Assembly (NCBI GenBank): GCA_964586355.1
Contig: CAZPGO010000030.1
Span: 20,421 to 84,420, forward strand
Direction: 5' to 3'
Length of the DNA: 64,000 bases
DNA from: an uncultured archaeon
Lineage (GTDB): Archaea; Iainarchaeota; Iainarchaeia; Iainarchaeales; CSSED10-239
Both the position numbers and the translations under genes were made by a program. Below, piece by piece: positions 5,184-64,000 of the stretch. The first letter of the stretch is position 1. Each line of letters starts with the position of its first letter. The notes beneath the pieces were generated by a model, which searched no databases, was not told the origin of the DNA, and saw only the letters and a program-made list of their open reading frames with translations.

Positions 5184-5729
5184 ATGACTCAAAATATTTA
5201 TAAACTTAATATATTGAAATTAGATCATAGACCAGAAAGAGATAAAAGAATTACAACACATTGTGCACTTGTTTCTAGAGCTTTTGGGGCAGATTCTTTC
5301 TTTTTTTCTGGTATTGAGGATAAAAAGATCATAGAAAATATAAAAAATATTAATAAAACATGGGGCGGGGATTTTGGTGTTGAATATTGTAAAGGCCCTT
5401 TAAAATTTATTAAAGAATTGAAGTTAAAGAATTGGTATGTTATTCATTTGACTATGTATGGTTTAAACATAAATACTGAAATAGAAAATATTTTAGAAAT
5501 TAAAAAAAATAAAAATATATTAATAATAATTGGAGGACCTAAGGTTCCAAGAGAGTATTATGATATTTCAGATCTTAATTTAGCGGTGGGTAATCAGCCT
5601 CATAGTGAGGTTGCTGCTATTGCACTATTATTATATTTATTAAATCCTAAATATCTTACTAAAGAATTTAGTGATTCTAAAATAAAAATAGATCCAAATC
5701 AAAAATATAAAAAGGTTATTAATTTATAA
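5184..5729 (+). CDS. tRNA (cytidine56-2'-O)-methyltransferase aTrm56 (SPOUT family).
   Basis: The N-terminal LKLDHRPERDKRITTHCALVSRAFGAD matches the conserved aTrm56 signature (LGHRPERDKR-TTHVAL-ARAFGA). The size of about 180 aa is typical. Confidence 0.7.
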   Translation: MTQNIYKLNILKLDHRPERDKRITTHCALVSRAFGADSFFFSGIEDKKIIENIKNINKTWGGDFGVEYCKGPLKFIKELKLKNWYVIHLTMYGLNINTEIENILEIKKNKNILIIIGGPKVPREYYDISDLNLAVGNQPHSEVAAIALLLYLLNPKYLTKEFSDSKIKIDPNQKYKKVINL

Positions 5730-5776: not shown

Positions 5777-6367
5777 ATGAGTAAAACTGCAACCTTAAAT
5801 AAATTAAAAAAAGATATCTTGAATGATAAAATAACAACACAATTTCTTGAACAAATTGCAGGACCTGTTGCACCAGATATTATAAAAATTTATGGAAAAG
5901 ATTCTGCTTTGTCTCCAGAAGATATATCTACTAAACTTAAGACTAAAATAACTTCTGTTAGATCTACATTAAATAGTTTACATTACAGAGGAATTGCTTG
6001 TTATAAAAAAGTTAAAAATAATCAAAATTTGTTTGAATTTTTTTGGGAAATTAAGTTTAAAAAAATTATTGAACTTGTTTTAGAAACAGAAATAGAAAAT
6101 ATTAAAAAATTAGAAGAATTAATATATCTACAACAAGATAGAGATTATTTCTTTTGTCCTAAAAAATGTATTGAAGCACCTTTTGAAGTTGCTGCTGCTT
6201 ATAATTTTAAATGCCCTAATTGTGGCAGAAATTTAGAAATGGCAGATACTAAAACTTATGTAGCATCTCTTAAAAGAAAAAAAACTATTGCCAAAAAAAA
6301 CATAGAAAAATTACATAAAATTTTAGAGAATATAGAGGATAAAACAACTGGATATATTTGTGAATAG
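5777..6367 (+). CDS. tfe: Transcription factor E (TFE, TFIIE-alpha homologue): winged helix plus a C-terminal zinc ribbon.
   Basis: There is an N-terminal winged-helix-like region. A Cys4 ribbon reads CPKKC...(17 aa)...CPNCG. The size and archaeal context fit TFE. Confidence 0.6.
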   Translation: MSKTATLNKLKKDILNDKITTQFLEQIAGPVAPDIIKIYGKDSALSPEDISTKLKTKITSVRSTLNSLHYRGIACYKKVKNNQNLFEFFWEIKFKKIIELVLETEIENIKKLEELIYLQQDRDYFFCPKKCIEAPFEVAAAYNFKCPNCGRNLEMADTKTYVASLKRKKTIAKKNIEKLHKILENIEDKTTGYICE

Positions 6368-6471
6368 ATAATATAAAAAAAATCTATTTAAATATCTTTT
6401 TATTTATTATATACTTAGAATGTCTTATAGTTATTAAATAAAAAATACTCTTTTTATTTAAAATCTACTTT

Positions 6472-6546
6472 AGCGGGGTGGGGCAGCCTGGAGTGCCCGT
6501 CGGGCTCATAACCCGAAGGTCGATGGTTCAAATCCATCCCCCGCTA
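6472..6546 (+). tRNA. Initiator tRNA-Met (anticodon CAU), archaeal type.
   Basis: It has the A1:U72 acceptor pair (AGCGGGG...CCCCGCT) and three G:C pairs in the anticodon stem (CGGGCTCATAACCCG). The T-arm is GGTTCAAATCC. These are hallmarks of archaeal tRNAi. Confidence 0.85.
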
Positions 6547-6781
6547 TTTTTTTTACTATTTTTAATTATTAAATTTTGTTAAAATACATTATTAATACTG
6601 GTTATTTCACACCAAATCTTGGACATAAAGCACTTATATTAAAAAGATAAAAACAAGAGCAAAAAAAAACAAAATAATATGATTAATCTATTTTTAACAG
6701 TTATTTTTCTTTTATTTTATTAAAAAACACTTTTTTTAACTTTTTTTAAGAAATAAAGCACAACAAGATCTTTTACATTTA

Positions 6782-6996
6782 GTAATTACCATAGAAATAA
6801 CCGTAATTACTAACATATTTTCTTAAAAATTTATTTAATTATCATAGTTATACATAATAAAAAAATGTTATTTTTACTGCAAAACAAATATTTAGTAATT
6901 ACTTTTGTCTTTTCTTAATAATTACCGTAATTACGAAAATAGCTCTAATATAATTACAGTAATTACAGAAGCATTTATAATAATTACGGTAATTAC
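6782..6996. repeat. Array of the perfect palindrome GTAATTAC. Single copies lie at 6782-6789, 6803-6810 and 6895-6902. Three copies of the 16-mer TAATTACNGTAATTAC lie at 6919-6934, 6951-6966 and 6981-6996, spaced about 31 bp apart.
   Basis: Counted directly in the sequence. The array lies between tRNAi-Met and the ATG at 7007. Confidence 0.7.
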
Positions 6997-7006
6997 TATA
7001 TATAAT
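6997..7006 (+). promoter_or_regulatory. TATA-like element (TATATATAAT) immediately upstream of the ATG at 7007. It is either a leaderless promoter or part of the A/T-rich spacer.
   Basis: The sequence is tatatataat directly 5' of the ATG. The archaeal TATA consensus is A/T-rich. Confidence 0.3.
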
Positions 7007-7753
7007 ATGAACATAATAAAAAAAAGCATTGGTTTTATTCTAAAAAAAGTACATAAACTTGATAGATATTTTATAGATAATAAAAAGATTCAAGAAATAG
7101 ATAATAAAAATATAGATCATCTAAAAAATGAAAAATTAAAAAAAGAATATAACGAATTAATTAAAAAAGAAGAAAATAATAAAATTAATCAAAATAAAGA
7201 TTCTATAAATTACCAAAATACTGTAGATAATTTTACTAATAATTACACTAAAACACAATCAAGTAATTTTCAAAATACTAATACATATTCTAATAATCAA
7301 AATTTTAGTTTAGAAAATTCTTCAAATAAAGAAATAGATGATTACTCTAATAAAGAAAGAAATAATTATTCTAATAATCAAAATAATTTAATAAATGAAA
7401 AACCCTTAAAAAATACTTATACAAAAACTGAATTAAATAAACTTGAAAATACTAAAATATATGATGTTAATAAAATAGATTTTAATAAAATAAATACTAT
7501 TTGGGATGTTATAAAAATAAAAGAAAACACACAAGCAGAACATATTATTAAATCATTGTCTGCAGATCAATGGATGGATATTGAAGATATTAAAAGAAGA
7601 ATAAAACTTGAATTTAATATAGAATATCAAAACGAAAAGAGTCTTTACCCTTACATAAAAACATTAACAGATATTAATTTAATTAAAGTAAATAATACTG
7701 GAAAAAAAAGAACTTGGAAAAAAAACATAATTTTAATTGAAAATAATAAGTAA
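7007..7753 (+). CDS. Hypothetical N/K-rich low-complexity protein with a more ordered C-terminal about 80 aa, possibly a winged-helix-like DNA-binding domain. The likely true start is the ATG at 7007; the ORF-track start at 6905 runs through the repeat array.
   Basis: The in-frame ATG at 7007 is preceded by the TATA-like run. The N-terminal 34 codons of the track ORF are encoded by the GTAATTAC repeats. Confidence 0.4.
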   Translation: MNIIKKSIGFILKKVHKLDRYFIDNKKIQEIDNKNIDHLKNEKLKKEYNELIKKEENNKINQNKDSINYQNTVDNFTNNYTKTQSSNFQNTNTYSNNQNFSLENSSNKEIDDYSNKERNNYSNNQNNLINEKPLKNTYTKTELNKLENTKIYDVNKIDFNKINTIWDVIKIKENTQAEHIIKSLSADQWMDIEDIKRRIKLEFNIEYQNEKSLYPYIKTLTDINLIKVNNTGKKRTWKKNIILIENNK

Positions 7754-7814
7754 TTTTATTAGAAATTATTCTTCCTTTTAATGCTAGTAGTTGCTTTTTA
7801 TTTTATAATAATTA

Positions 7815-8396
7815 TTACTCTTTATTTTTTAGTAATAAAATATTATTATAAAAAGAAGATAAGATTTCTGAGTGTTCTTTTGATTTATTAAACCAATCTA
7901 TATCTAAAACATAATTTATATCATTATCTAAATAATTAATATTAGATAAATTATTTAAAACAGCATAATTAACTTCATCAATTATTTTTTTTAAAGAACC
8001 ATCATGTGATATTATTAAATATTCTTTTAAAAAATCTTCTGTTGCTTTTATTATATTATTAATATCAATATCTATAACCTCTATTTTATAATCAACAGAC
8101 CAAGAACCTTTTTCTTTCCAATTATGAGTTGGGTTAACTCCTGTATTAAAAAAATCTATTAATTTATGTTCTAATTTTAATGGAATTACTACAGCATTTT
8201 TACCTGGTCTAATTAATGGCATATTACTTAAAACACCTTTTCTAAAATAAACATATTTTTTATTATTATTTTTAGAAACATTTTGTTTATAACCATAAAT
8301 AGATCTAAATATTCTTTGGTATGTATAACTTGAATGTTTAATATTATTTTCAAAAACAAACTTATATTTTATGTAGTTAGATTTTATAGTTTCCAT
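7815..8396 (-). CDS. Hypothetical protein (193 aa), no recognisable family.
   Basis: It is an intact ORF in the accessory-looking block between tRNAi-Met and the integrase. Confidence 0.35.
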   Translation of the reverse strand: METIKSNYIKYKFVFENNIKHSSYTYQRIFRSIYGYKQNVSKNNNKKYVYFRKGVLSNMPLIRPGKNAVVIPLKLEHKLIDFFNTGVNPTHNWKEKGSWSVDYKIEVIDIDINNIIKATEDFLKEYLIISHDGSLKKIIDEVNYAVLNNLSNINYLDNDINYVLDIDWFNKSKEHSEILSSFYNNILLLKNKE

Positions 8397-8911: not shown

Positions 8912-9174
8912 TTTAATTCCTCCAAATAAATTAAATATTATTTATTAAAAACTATATCTAAAAGGTTATACAAAGCATTTATATATATTACTTTTTTATT
9001 TTATATATAATTTAAATAGATAAGTTTGTTTTTAAAACCAATAATTAATAAATACTTACAAACAATATATAAATGTTATAGTTTTTTAGTTAATTTTATT
9101 AAGATTTTAATAAATTTAGAACTTTCTAAGCAATTTGTAAAATATTTTTAGTAATACAAGAAGTATGGGGTCTA

Positions 9175-12511: not shown

Positions 12512-13180
12512 ATGGAATTAAGAATAGGTGCAATAGAAAAATTTAGCACAATAGATTATCCTGACAAGATATCTTGTGCTATTTTTTTAAAAGGGTGTAA
12601 TTTTTTTTGTGGTTTTTGTTATAATAAACAACTAGTTTGTAAAGAACTATTGGACACCACTCCTGATCTTCCCCTAGAAGAACTTAAAGAATTTTTAAAC
12701 AAACGTGTTGGCTTAATTGATGCGGTTGTTGTTAGTGGTGGAGAACCAACAATATATGGCGATTCTCTTATTTCTTTTATTAGAGAGATAAAAACAAAAG
12801 GTTATCTAATAAAATTAGACACAAATGGTTCAAATCCAAAAGTATTAAAACAAATAATTTCTGAAAATTTGGTTGATTATATTGCTATGGATTTAAAAGA
12901 TTCTTTTGAAAATTATGATAAATATACTTTTGTTCCTGTTGAAAACATCAAAGAGTCTATTAATTTAATCCTAAATTCCAACATAGCTCATGAGTTTAGA
13001 GTTACCACTCACCCAGAACTAACTTTGGAGAATTTTAATATTTTATTAACTTATGTTCCTGAGCAAAAGGTTCTTGTCCAAGATTTCATGAACACCAATA
13101 CTATAAAAGAATATCCTGATGATTCTAAAACAATTTTTTCACAATTATCAAAAGAGGACAAAAGATATATTTTACGTTAA
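12512..13180 (+). CDS. nrdG: Anaerobic RNR activating enzyme NrdG (radical SAM).
   Basis: The CxxxCxxC cluster is CNFFCGFCYNKQ. It has the GGEP motif (VSGGEPTIY). It lies directly downstream of nrdD. Confidence 0.85.
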   Translation: MELRIGAIEKFSTIDYPDKISCAIFLKGCNFFCGFCYNKQLVCKELLDTTPDLPLEELKEFLNKRVGLIDAVVVSGGEPTIYGDSLISFIREIKTKGYLIKLDTNGSNPKVLKQIISENLVDYIAMDLKDSFENYDKYTFVPVENIKESINLILNSNIAHEFRVTTHPELTLENFNILLTYVPEQKVLVQDFMNTNTIKEYPDDSKTIFSQLSKEDKRYILR

Positions 13181-62346: not shown

Positions 62347-62467
62347 TTTTTTAACATTTTAATTTTATTTTCCAAATACCAAGTATATAAAAAGTATTTT
62401 GTTTATAATATATAATAGTTTCTTAGATGCAATAACTATTTAAGAGAAAAATTTAGGGTGTTAATTA

Positions 62468-63676
62468 ATGAGTGATAATATTTTTTATGAATTATTAAAT
62501 CAAGATTCTGTTTTTACTGACAAATCAAAAATATCACCACATTATGCTCCAGAGAAACTACCTTTTCGTGATCAACAAATAAAAAACCTCTCTTTATGGT
62601 TAGCACCAGCACTAAAAAAAGCAAAACCTCATAATATCTTTATTTATGGTAAAGTGGGTACAGGAAAAACAACTGTTGTAAAACATGTAATAGATCAATT
62701 AGAGCATTTTTCTAAAGATCAACAGCTTCCATTAAAAACAATTTATATAAATTGTAGAAATTATCAAACAAAATATGCGATTTTATTCTATTGTGTTCAA
62801 TTGTTTTATCCAGATCTAAATTTTATAGGTTATTCTAGATCTTTTATTTATGATAAATTTTTAACTTATGTTAAAGAAAATAAACTTAATTTTGTAGTTA
62901 TCTTAGATGAGATTGACAAAGTAAAAGAAATTGATGATCTAACTTATACCCTAATAAGATCAAATGATGAAATAGATCTAGGCTCTGTTTCTATGATTGG
63001 CATCTCAAACAACATTTTTTTTAAAAATAATTTAGATTCTAGAACAAAAAGCACACTTTGTGAGCAAGAAGCGGTTTATCCCCCCTATAATGCTGAAGAA
63101 CTAAAAAGTATTCTTGAGCAAAGAGTTGAACTAGCTTTTAAAGAAAACTCAGTTACTGATTCTGCAATAAATTCTGCAGCTGCAATTGCTGCAAAAGAGT
63201 CAGGGGATGCTAGGCGTGCTGTTATGTTATTATTAAGAGCAGGAGAGCTTGCTGATCTAAATAAATCCAAACAAGTTACAGATAAGGAAGTTTACAGAGC
63301 AAAAGAAAAAGTTGAGTTAGAAGTTATGAAAAGCATGGTTTTAACTCTACCATTACAATTACAACTAGTTTTATTTGCAATTGCTCAAAGCTCATTAAAA
63401 CCTAAGGGAATACTCAATCTAACTGGTCAAACACTAGATTCAAATATAATCTATTCAGGAGAAATATTTGATAAATATTCAGAGATTTGTGAAAGTTATT
63501 GTGAAAAGGCAGTTTCTATAAGATGGTTTAGAGAATATATTACTGAGTTAGAGACCTATGGTTTTATTTCTACTACTATTTCTGGTAAAGGAGTAAAAGG
63601 AAATACTACTTTAATAAAACTAGGTATTGATGCACAAAGTATAGTAGATCTTTTAGAAAATGAATTAAAGGTTTAA
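62468..63676 (+). CDS. cdc6: Orc1/Cdc6 replication initiator (AAA+ plus a C-terminal winged helix).
   Basis: LPFRDQQIKNL is present. Walker A is IYGKVGTGKTTVVKHV. Walker B is VVILDEIDK. Sensor 2 is GDARRAVMLL. Confidence 0.9.
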   Translation: MSDNIFYELLNQDSVFTDKSKISPHYAPEKLPFRDQQIKNLSLWLAPALKKAKPHNIFIYGKVGTGKTTVVKHVIDQLEHFSKDQQLPLKTIYINCRNYQTKYAILFYCVQLFYPDLNFIGYSRSFIYDKFLTYVKENKLNFVVILDEIDKVKEIDDLTYTLIRSNDEIDLGSVSMIGISNNIFFKNNLDSRTKSTLCEQEAVYPPYNAEELKSILEQRVELAFKENSVTDSAINSAAAIAAKESGDARRAVMLLLRAGELADLNKSKQVTDKEVYRAKEKVELEVMKSMVLTLPLQLQLVLFAIAQSSLKPKGILNLTGQTLDSNIIYSGEIFDKYSEICESYCEKAVSIRWFREYITELETYGFISTTISGKGVKGNTTLIKLGIDAQSIVDLLENELKV

Positions 63677-63744
63677 ATTGTTTTTTTTTGTACAATCTAT
63701 TTGCTTTATATATCTTTTTTTGTATAATTTATTTGTGGTTTATT

Positions 63745-64000
63745 ATGCCAGAAACAAAAAAAATAGTAGATTCTATAAGGGTAAAAATTTTATCAGCTAT
63801 GAAACAAAAAGGTTCCATTACTCCAAATGTAAGACAAATTAAGAAATTAACAGGTTTTCATAGAGCTACCATTAAATCATCAATAGATTTTTTAGAAAAT
63901 TCTAAATTTATTAATGGGTATAGACCATTATTAGATTCTAAAGTTGTTGGAAATAAATTAGTTGTTTGGTCTTTTTTAAATGTTGATTCAAGTGATAAAA
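63745..64000 (+). CDS. Winged-helix transcriptional regulator-like protein, 3'-truncated by the window end.
   Basis: The ATG is at 63745. The protein is MPETKKIVDSIRVKILSAMKQKGSITPNVRQIKKLTGFHRATIKSSIDFLENSKFI, an HTH/wH pattern. Confidence 0.35.
   Translation, partial: MPETKKIVDSIRVKILSAMKQKGSITPNVRQIKKLTGFHRATIKSSIDFLENSKFINGYRPLLDSKVVGNKLVVWSFLNVDSSDK

Follow-up and report, generated by a model that had tools for sequence, protein, structure and literature searches.

A 64-kb stretch of DNA from a DPANN-type archaeon (hereafter the window), whose source is identified as archaeal by the genes that flank the region of interest, carries an array of the 8-bp palindrome GTAATTAC on the promoter of a gene for a 248-amino-acid (aa) winged-helix protein. 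The pairing of this DPANN-specific protein with the box array is strongly conserved and previously undescribed, and the array is most likely an operator of a well-known class. In the reading that we favour, the protein encoded at 7007-7753 probably binds the several boxes cooperatively and thereby represses its own gene.

Six exact copies of GTAATTAC are present in the window, starting at 6782, 6803, 6895, 6927, 6959 and 6989, and all six fall between 6782 and 6996; the other 63.7 kb contain none. Dinucleotide-preserving shuffles of the window gave 1.45 exact copies on average and 5 at most, and never reached six. Three further boxes, of the form ATAATTAC, begin at 6918, 6950 and 6980, each of them 9 bp 5' of an exact GTAATTAC, which brings the array to nine boxes over 215 bp, organised as three 17-bp double boxes and three single boxes. 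Within the double boxes lie three TAATTACNGTAATTAC 16-mers (6919-6934, 6951-6966 and 6981-6996; 32 and 30 bp from start to start), and 10 nt separate the final box from the ATG at 7007. The initial annotation of this DNA had already described the three 16-mers, their spacing of about 31 bp and their end 10 bp before the ATG, all of which we recovered; it was also right about the clustering of the 8-mer but counted eight copies where there are nine. It had suggested looking for the 16-mer elsewhere, and in the window TAATTACNGTAATTAC with up to two mismatches has no match beyond these three except a degenerate one at 6795-6810. The array and the gene that follows it comprise these features:

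6782..6789, unstranded: distal box 1, GTAATTAC, an exact match whose column is invariant in 13 aligned loci
6803..6810, unstranded: distal box 2, GTAATTAC, at 21 bp from box 1, within the range (21-23 bp) that ranks second among box spacings
6895..6902, unstranded: single box 3, GTAATTAC, found only in the window and the clade of its close relative L001, the segment being missing in other lineages
6918..6934, unstranded: double box A, ATAATTAC-C-GTAATTAC, which aligns with GTAATTAC-N-GTAAT(G/A)AC of relatives
6950..6966, unstranded: double box B, ATAATTAC-A-GTAATTAC, 32 bp from double box A, with invariant columns
6974..6981, plus strand: predicted TATA box TTTATAAT, kept as TTTA(T/A)AAT in 13 loci, 26-33 nt before the ATG
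6980..6996, unstranded: double box C, ATAATTAC-G-GTAATTAC, which overlaps the predicted TATA box and fills the interval from there to the start, the position of an operator
7007..7753, plus strand: gene for the 248-aa protein, predicted to begin with an amphipathic helix, to continue with an N/Q-rich low-complexity linker and to end in a winged helix (about residues 160-245)

The boxes are conserved well beyond their surroundings. We aligned the intergenic region from the upstream tRNA gene to the ATG across 13 loci and computed column identities for nine non-redundant lineages. Mean identity is 0.99 in the 64 box columns, 61 of which are invariant, and 0.65 in the 377 other columns. Apart from the boxes there are only two short conserved blocks, CTAAATCTTGGACA (6610-6625) and TTATACATAAT (6848-6858). 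Metagenomes were scanned for pairs of double boxes separated by 10-20 bp, which gave 45 loci, and in every low-GC array locus that reaches far enough the winged-helix gene directly follows the array. Boxes, including equivalents of the proximal ones, are also kept before the ATG in four loci from MAGs (metagenome-assembled genomes) labelled Micrarchaeota, Diapherotrites or Ainarchaeum (L172-L175), and the most divergent family members keep them too, over-long public gene calls there translating the boxes as VITVI or SNYGNY. The initial annotation had proposed a comparison with related genomes, and the same repeats are indeed found before the winged-helix gene in these, distant lineages included. 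Its worry that the repeats might belong to a conserved coding region in relatives does not apply, as the boxes there lie upstream of the conserved start codon.

The geometry of the array is likewise constrained. Over 19 loci the distances from box to box are quantised, with 9 bp (56 instances) and 21-23 bp (46 instances) the commonest, followed by 30-32 and 42 bp, and in the same loci the flanking bases extend the palindrome to R-GTAATTAC-Y. Two loci, L081 and L175, have runs of 4-5 consecutive boxes at a 9-bp period; in L081, whose homologue has 134 aa, there are four such boxes with a fifth nearby. A scan of 185,579 species genomes for the 16-mer gave at least three useful archaeal loci (L036, L074 and L081) among matches dominated by single chance occurrences in bacteria, and a literature search for GTAATTAC returned only primers and unrelated sequences.

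Some array-like matches were set aside. Those on high-GC metagenome contigs are unrelated to the archaeal gene and represent bacterial 9-bp tandem, microsatellite-like repeats. On the contigs in question (GC 0.45-0.60; L127, L128, L131, L132, L134, L146, L149, L156-L159, L166 and L167), GTAATTACN occurs in 5-11 head-to-tail copies with a 9-bp period, and in some of them it alternates with GTAATTGGC. Scans of viral contigs found no double-box arrays, and the few triple-box matches among them represent tandem or coding repeats and lack a winged-helix homologue. Three IMG/VR contigs carry three GTAATTAC boxes 20-23 bp apart (L177 at 8962-9015, L178 at 6858-6909 and L180 at 903-950); those of L178 and L180 sit within tandem repeats of 20-23 bp, and no winged-helix homologue is present in any of the three.

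The protein belongs to a compact, sharply bounded family that is restricted to DPANN-type archaea. Sequence searches recovered 81 homologues and profile searches 533, all of them from uncultivated archaeal MAGs. No more than 37 clusters (at 50% identity) came out of an exhaustive HMMER search across 1.84 billion cluster representatives, with a sharp cliff and no distant relatives beyond it. In an alignment of 33 homologues, identity to the window protein is 36-95% overall and 47-100% over the C-terminal domain of about 95 residues, and the middle region is a variable N/Q-rich linker. AlphaFold2, run with an alignment, modelled residues 165-240 with a predicted local distance difference test score (pLDDT) above 90, rising to 93-96 for residues from about 170 to 240, and placed helices at 176-183, 192-203 and 214-222 and strands at 226-231 and 234-239, i.e. 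a three-helix bundle with a beta-hairpin wing. The top Foldseek matches of this model in the PDB are all winged-helix DNA binders (the DNA-binding domains of Fur, PadR, ArsR/SmtB/CzrA, RosR and BlaI, and STIV F93), with a Foldseek probability of 1.0 and TM-scores, normalised to the target, of 0.4-0.6. The C-terminal domain is therefore predicted to adopt the winged helix-turn-helix DNA-binding fold, at the level of the superfamily, which agrees with the winged helix that had been suspected from the sequence.

Assignment to any known family fails at the level of sequence. The 248-aa protein has no match in Pfam, NCBIfam, PHROGs or PADLOC. It is not hit by the PadR model (PF03551) even at E<=10, and the L081 homologue reaches 18.4 bits against a cutoff of 27. 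Nor is there a Pfam, NCBIfam or PDB sequence match that would place it with Fur or ArsR/SmtB, to which the likeness is one of fold only, and it has neither a metal-binding nor a C-terminal dimerisation domain. Two elements recur throughout the family. The predicted recognition helix, (K/R)SLYPY(I/L/V)KT(L/M), is near-invariant and in this parallels the invariant box. Family members also begin with a predicted cationic amphipathic helix of 14-17 residues, which in most of them has a hydrophobic moment of 0.55-0.70 and a charge of +3 to +5. This conserved N-terminus aligns from the methionine at 7007, and the TTG start at 6905 of the longer open reading frame, which translates the boxes (...NIITVITEAFIIITVITIYN-MNIIKK), is therefore an artefact, as had been proposed. 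The same artefact affects six database proteins (P0006, P0054, P0080, P0081, P0184 and P0192), whose starts are placed too far upstream and whose sequences include translated boxes (ITVIT, SNYGNY).

The position of the proximal boxes bears most directly on function. Across the aligned loci the order TTTA(T/A)AAT, double box, about 10 nt, ATG is conserved. No Shine-Dalgarno sequence precedes the ATG at 7007, whereas several other genes of the window have GGAGG or GGTG. Given this and a predicted TATA box 26-33 nt from the ATG, the sequence fits a leaderless mRNA that would start at or just before the ATG. Archaeal repressors that block the recruitment of TBP/TFB or of RNA polymerase bind between the TATA box and the start. 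Boxes lie over the putative core promoter of the candidate binder's own gene in the 13 aligned loci as well as in L172-L175, and because the proximal double box sits between the predicted TATA box and the start codon across lineages, autoregulation is the best-supported mechanism. The initial annotation had listed autoregulation by the downstream protein among its candidates, and the placing of double box C at what appears to be a conserved operator position gives that proposal its present weight.

We envisage the following mechanism. Each 8-bp palindromic box, R-GTAATTAC-Y, would be one recognition unit, and a double box, with its 9-bp offset, would probably take one dimer. The remaining boxes are about two or three helical turns apart (21-23 and 30-32 bp), and since this spacing would put the bound proteins on one face of the DNA, the upstream boxes are well suited to cooperative binding and may serve to add cooperativity. 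Occupancy of double box C should block recruitment of TBP/TFB or RNA polymerase, and the resulting negative autoregulation would hold the level of the winged-helix protein constant.

Several observations weigh against an operator as the whole explanation. The boxes of L081 are 5' of the TATA box and do not cover it. Boxes also occur at places free of promoters, namely after stop codons, inside genes and on a mobile-element contig. After the stop codon of the winged-helix gene L130 has seven 22-bp tandem units, L163 three boxes and L170 two. The L129 lineage has two boxes within the linker-coding region, and in L129 itself a double box with a single box 31 bp away (2618-2660) falls within the coding sequence of Trm56 (...IITVITK...GGNYQ...), 1.45 kb 5' of the main array; Trm56-internal boxes are found in L139, L140, L141, L145 and L168 as well. 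The metagenome contig L148 (Ga0114918_10025908, 4.3 kb) is mobile-element-like, encoding a DUF5906/VapE/D5-type helicase and a tyrosine integrase, and has two perfect GTAATTAC double boxes (2478-2523) in an 800-bp non-coding region, with no winged-helix gene on its 4.3 kb. In 185 kb of related flanks, 19 boxes lie more than 1 kb from the cluster centre where 4.2 are expected, a mild enrichment that is mostly inside genes. No second target was found in the 64-kb window, and a factor that regulated only itself would be purposeless. Finally, all family members come from uncultivated MAGs, and the family is too uniform (37 clusters with essentially one predicted recognition helix) for a test of protein-DNA covariation. 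The non-coding region of L148 also contains iteron-like repeats, ATTCGGCATAATCTCA occurring twice, and the window has two traces of boxes beyond the promoter:

7239..7246, unstranded: degenerate in-gene box ATAATTAC in the linker-coding region; the L129, L138, L139 and L142 lineages have perfect boxes in the same region and L005 has one
7787..7794, unstranded: decayed box GTAGTTGC beyond the stop codon, where L001, the 91%-identical relative, has a perfect GTAATTAC

Together, the amphipathic helix, the boxes beyond the promoter and those on a mobile element leave room for a role in chromosome tethering or one akin to a centromere. Boxes and protein might form a structural nucleoprotein complex, either a membrane tether anchored through the N-terminal helix or a centromere-like or bridging site, with autoregulation as a by-product; we regard this as unlikely, though it is the chief rival of a plain operator. 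A predicted cationic amphipathic N-terminus, a variable disordered linker and a winged helix make up the same list of parts as in two bacterial proteins, Noc and RicO. Noc of B. subtilis, which acts at its NBS sites, combines a sequence-specific DNA-binding domain with a terminal amphipathic helix and tethers DNA to the membrane. In S. aureus, RicO likewise uses a DNA-binding domain and an amphipathic helix to bridge chromosomal sites (ricS) to the membrane, and there are nine such sites over about 700 kb (bioRxiv 10.64898/2026.03.06.710092). The conserved neighbours of the winged-helix gene, a PRC-barrel protein and XerA, the recombinase that resolves dimers of the chromosome, would suit such a role, as would the boxes after stop codons, within coding regions and on L148, and the fact that the cluster is apparently the sole one in 64 kb. 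PRC-barrel proteins are linked to archaeal cell division.

Against this, membrane binding is a prediction in the archaeal family, and the helix might just as well serve in oligomerisation. Noc and RicO are bacterial, have other folds and, like known tethers in general, act at sites dispersed over hundreds of kb, whereas the boxes here form a single tight cluster on the gene of the protein itself and the related flanks show only the mild excess of boxes described above. Partition loci of the ParABS, SegAB or AspA kind have an adjacent Walker-type ATPase; none of the ParA/SegA type adjoins the winged-helix gene, the neighbouring genes having no ATPase domain. Autoregulation, moreover, would fully explain the conserved overlap with the TATA box. 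It is a possible but doubtful picture in which the helix would hold the membrane or oligomerise, the flexible linker would span the gap and the winged helix would coat some 0.3-1 kb of DNA including its own gene, as an archaeal chromosome-membrane tether or centromere-like centre. At least one mobile element has the boxes, and it may use them to hitch-hike on such a system.

An operator bound by the winged-helix protein must also be weighed against one bound by some other factor, with the winged-helix gene as its regulated target only. What links the protein to the boxes is their co-localisation, and the uniformity of the family precludes covariation as a further link. We nevertheless find another factor highly improbable. 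The pairing of boxes and gene survives to the limits of the family, including loci with a different tRNA or different upstream genes (L081 and L175); the putative DNA-reading helix and the box are both invariant; and no other DNA-binding gene is consistently adjacent, TFE-alpha being a general and not a sequence-specific transcription factor.

The boxes could instead be origin-recognition repeats, in which case the winged-helix protein would be a non-Orc initiator or an accessory factor, like WhiP at Sulfolobus oriC3. An intergenic region that is long, AT-rich, conserved and full of repeats, beside the gene of a putative binder, would be in keeping with this, and so would the two double boxes in the non-coding region of the contig that encodes a D5/VapE-type helicase. 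In addition, the orc1/cdc6 gene of the window (62468-63676) is flanked by only 121 bp (62347-62467) and 70 bp (63677-63746) of intergenic DNA, so there is no classical orc1-adjacent origin with origin recognition box (ORB) repeats. However, the array is 55 kb from orc1/cdc6, and a tblastn search with Orc1 found nothing in the fetched flanks (up to 10 kb per side) of all the related loci, so that orc1/cdc6 does not adjoin the array as an initiator gene would at an archaeal oriC. The 2-kb GC-skew profile follows gene orientation and has no clear turning point at 6.9 kb, and the protein is predicted to be a single small winged helix with neither an AAA+ domain nor a Cdt1-like tandem winged-helix architecture. 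The boxes also do not appear to resemble ORB or mini-ORB elements. An origin at this place is, in our judgement, highly improbable. The initial annotation had called the repeats an operator or iteron array; operator-type protein-binding sites are what our results point to, and the iteron or replication role lacks direct support, given the distance to orc1/cdc6 and its absence from the related flanks.

The array had further been placed between an initiator tRNA and an accessory gene block, and a replication or partition site of an element integrated at that tRNA had been suggested. The neighbouring genes are as follows:

5184-5729, strand not stated: aTrm56, flanking gene
5777-6367, strand not stated: TFE-alpha, flanking gene
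6471..6547, plus strand: initiator-type tRNA-Met(CAT), left boundary of the intergenic region (ARAGORN, Rfam tRNA)
7815-8396, minus strand: 193-aa protein (19x aa in relatives), convergent with the winged-helix gene
beyond it, minus strand, 3' of the winged-helix gene: PRC-barrel protein and tyrosine recombinase; then anaerobic ribonucleotide reductase

The tRNA is of the initiator type as judged by its A1:U72 pair and the G29-31:C39-41 anticodon stem, read from the sequence, and this part of the description stands. An integrated element would also be in line with a tyrosine recombinase 2 kb away and with the lower GC content (0.19-0.20) over 6-10 kb. Yet the recombinase passes the NF040815 recomb_XerA_Arch equivalog model (273 bits, cutoff 220) and, on this sequence evidence, is a chromosomal XerA, a dimer-resolution enzyme and not the integrase of an element. 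The 3' end of the tRNA has no second copy anywhere in the window. The order TFE, (tRNAi-Met), long intergenic region, winged-helix gene, convergent 19x-aa and PRC-barrel genes and usually XerA recurs in relatives. It is kept in L001, L002 and L005 (orthologues 91% and about 60% identical) and in L172-L175, although in L175, which retains the 19x-aa and PRC-barrel genes, the recombinase is absent from that position. Gene order shared across Micrarchaeota and Diapherotrites MAGs is not that of an accessory block, nor do the winged-helix, 193-aa and PRC-barrel proteins have any rep, par, phage (PHROGs) or defence (PADLOC) match. The element integrase, duplicated tRNA 3' end and variable presence that mark tRNA-integrated elements are thus all wanting here; conserved gene order, XerA and a single tRNA 3' end together defeat this explanation, and iterons or a partition site of an integrated element are barely credible. 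That the array is a compositional artefact of an AT-rich genome, or merely a translated repeat, has virtually no chance of being true: the GC content of about 26% and the reading frame from 6905 that spans the boxes might suggest it, but the total absence of exact copies from the other 63.7 kb at that base composition excludes a compositional origin (the initial annotation had itself named a similar density of the 8-mer elsewhere as the outcome to fear), the boxes are invariant where their flanks diverge, and the conserved N-terminus starts at 7007.

In all cases the gene for the 19x-aa protein is convergent with the winged-helix gene and follows the PRC-barrel gene (as well as XerA, if there is one). 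The N-terminal 100 aa of its product are strongly conserved (YKF..KHSSY.YQK.FR.IYGY.Q). The 193-aa protein of the window has no Pfam, NCBIfam or PDB sequence match, a PDB profile search included, and no Walker A motif; its single-sequence AlphaFold2 model has a pLDDT of 33. A RusA match (E=0.017) was not reproduced in 7 orthologues and was rejected.

Two conserved blocks of the intergenic region lie outside the boxes:

6610..6625, plus strand: CTAAATCTTGGACA, not a GTAATTAC box; at least 88% column identity over the nine lineages
6848..6858, plus strand: TTATACATAAT, a conserved run in the alignment between the distal and proximal boxes

The first of these has an ACAC..TTGGACA version in L172-L175. 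An (ACAC)nAAATCTTGGACA block, which is not repeated there, is in fact present between TFE and the winged-helix gene in every lineage (at about 790 in L172, 4275 in L173, 4420 in L174 and 4720 in L175), 3' of the tRNA in the window clade and L175 and 5' of it in L172-L174. A second exact 12-mer copy lies inside a coding region, at 13075-13086 on the minus strand. The second block, TTATACATAAT, could serve as a TATA-like promoter element, in which case there would be another promoter, distal to the first: the 9-mer TATACATAA looks promoter-like because it recurs in other intergenic regions (10159, 10228 and, on the minus strand, 8450), and it also forms an inverted pair in L148 (2207/2217). We considered whether the TTGGACA or TTATACATAAT block might be a dif site, but neither has the 11-6-11 inverted-repeat structure. 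In Thermococcales, dif sites are not adjacent to xerA (PMC2958812). A non-coding RNA in the intergenic region was likewise rejected, there being no Rfam match at E<=1.

Among characterised systems, several share some features with an autoregulatory box array. Ss-LrpB of Sulfolobus solfataricus reportedly binds cooperatively to three palindromic boxes, placed at regular intervals in its own control region, and regulates itself. The resemblance lies in an archaeal regulator gene whose own promoter has several palindromic boxes, regularly spaced along one face of the DNA. However, Ss-LrpB is an Lrp/AsnC protein with 15-bp boxes, whereas here the putative binder is an unrelated winged helix, the boxes are of 8 bp in doublets offset by 9 bp, nine of them span 215 bp, and in some relatives boxes also follow the gene. 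With repressors of the PadR, ArsR/SmtB, Fur (DNA-binding domain) and RosR types the protein shares the predicted fold of its C-terminal domain and a palindromic operator over the promoter, but not membership at the level of sequence. Its domains also come in the opposite order, the amphipathic helix and disordered linker preceding a winged helix that forms the C-terminus. MetJ of E. coli is a ribbon-helix-helix protein that binds tandem 8-bp met boxes with an 8-bp period and has a regulon of several operons. It too uses head-to-tail 8-bp palindromic boxes, as are seen in L081 and L175, but in our case the predicted fold is a winged helix and the period 9 bp. Finally, AspA of pNOB8, SegB of Crenarchaeota and WhiP at oriC3 are small archaeal DNA binders with palindromic sites beside their own genes and a structural role combined with autoregulation. 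The sites described here are also immediately beside the gene of a small putative archaeal DNA binder, but in contrast to those systems no adjacent ParA/SegA ATPase or origin features were found.

The genomes of the uncultivated DPANN archaea are reduced, and the gene regulation and chromosome handling of these archaea are almost unstudied. The present results provide a precise and testable candidate protein-DNA pair, consisting of an invariant R-GTAATTAC-Y box, 9-bp doublets about two or three turns apart and a domain of about 95 aa without a family assignment, and this pair is kept, always with TFE-alpha on one side and the PRC-barrel/XerA block on the other, in two candidate phyla or more. 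Were it a plain autoregulator, the protein would represent a new family of regulators, and its conserved start corrects the gene starts given in public MAG annotations. If, on the other hand, the amphipathic helix binds the membrane, the protein would become a candidate for chromosome positioning or segregation in these tiny cells, and the system would be the first of its kind proposed for DPANN archaea, an analogue of bacterial Noc or RicO.

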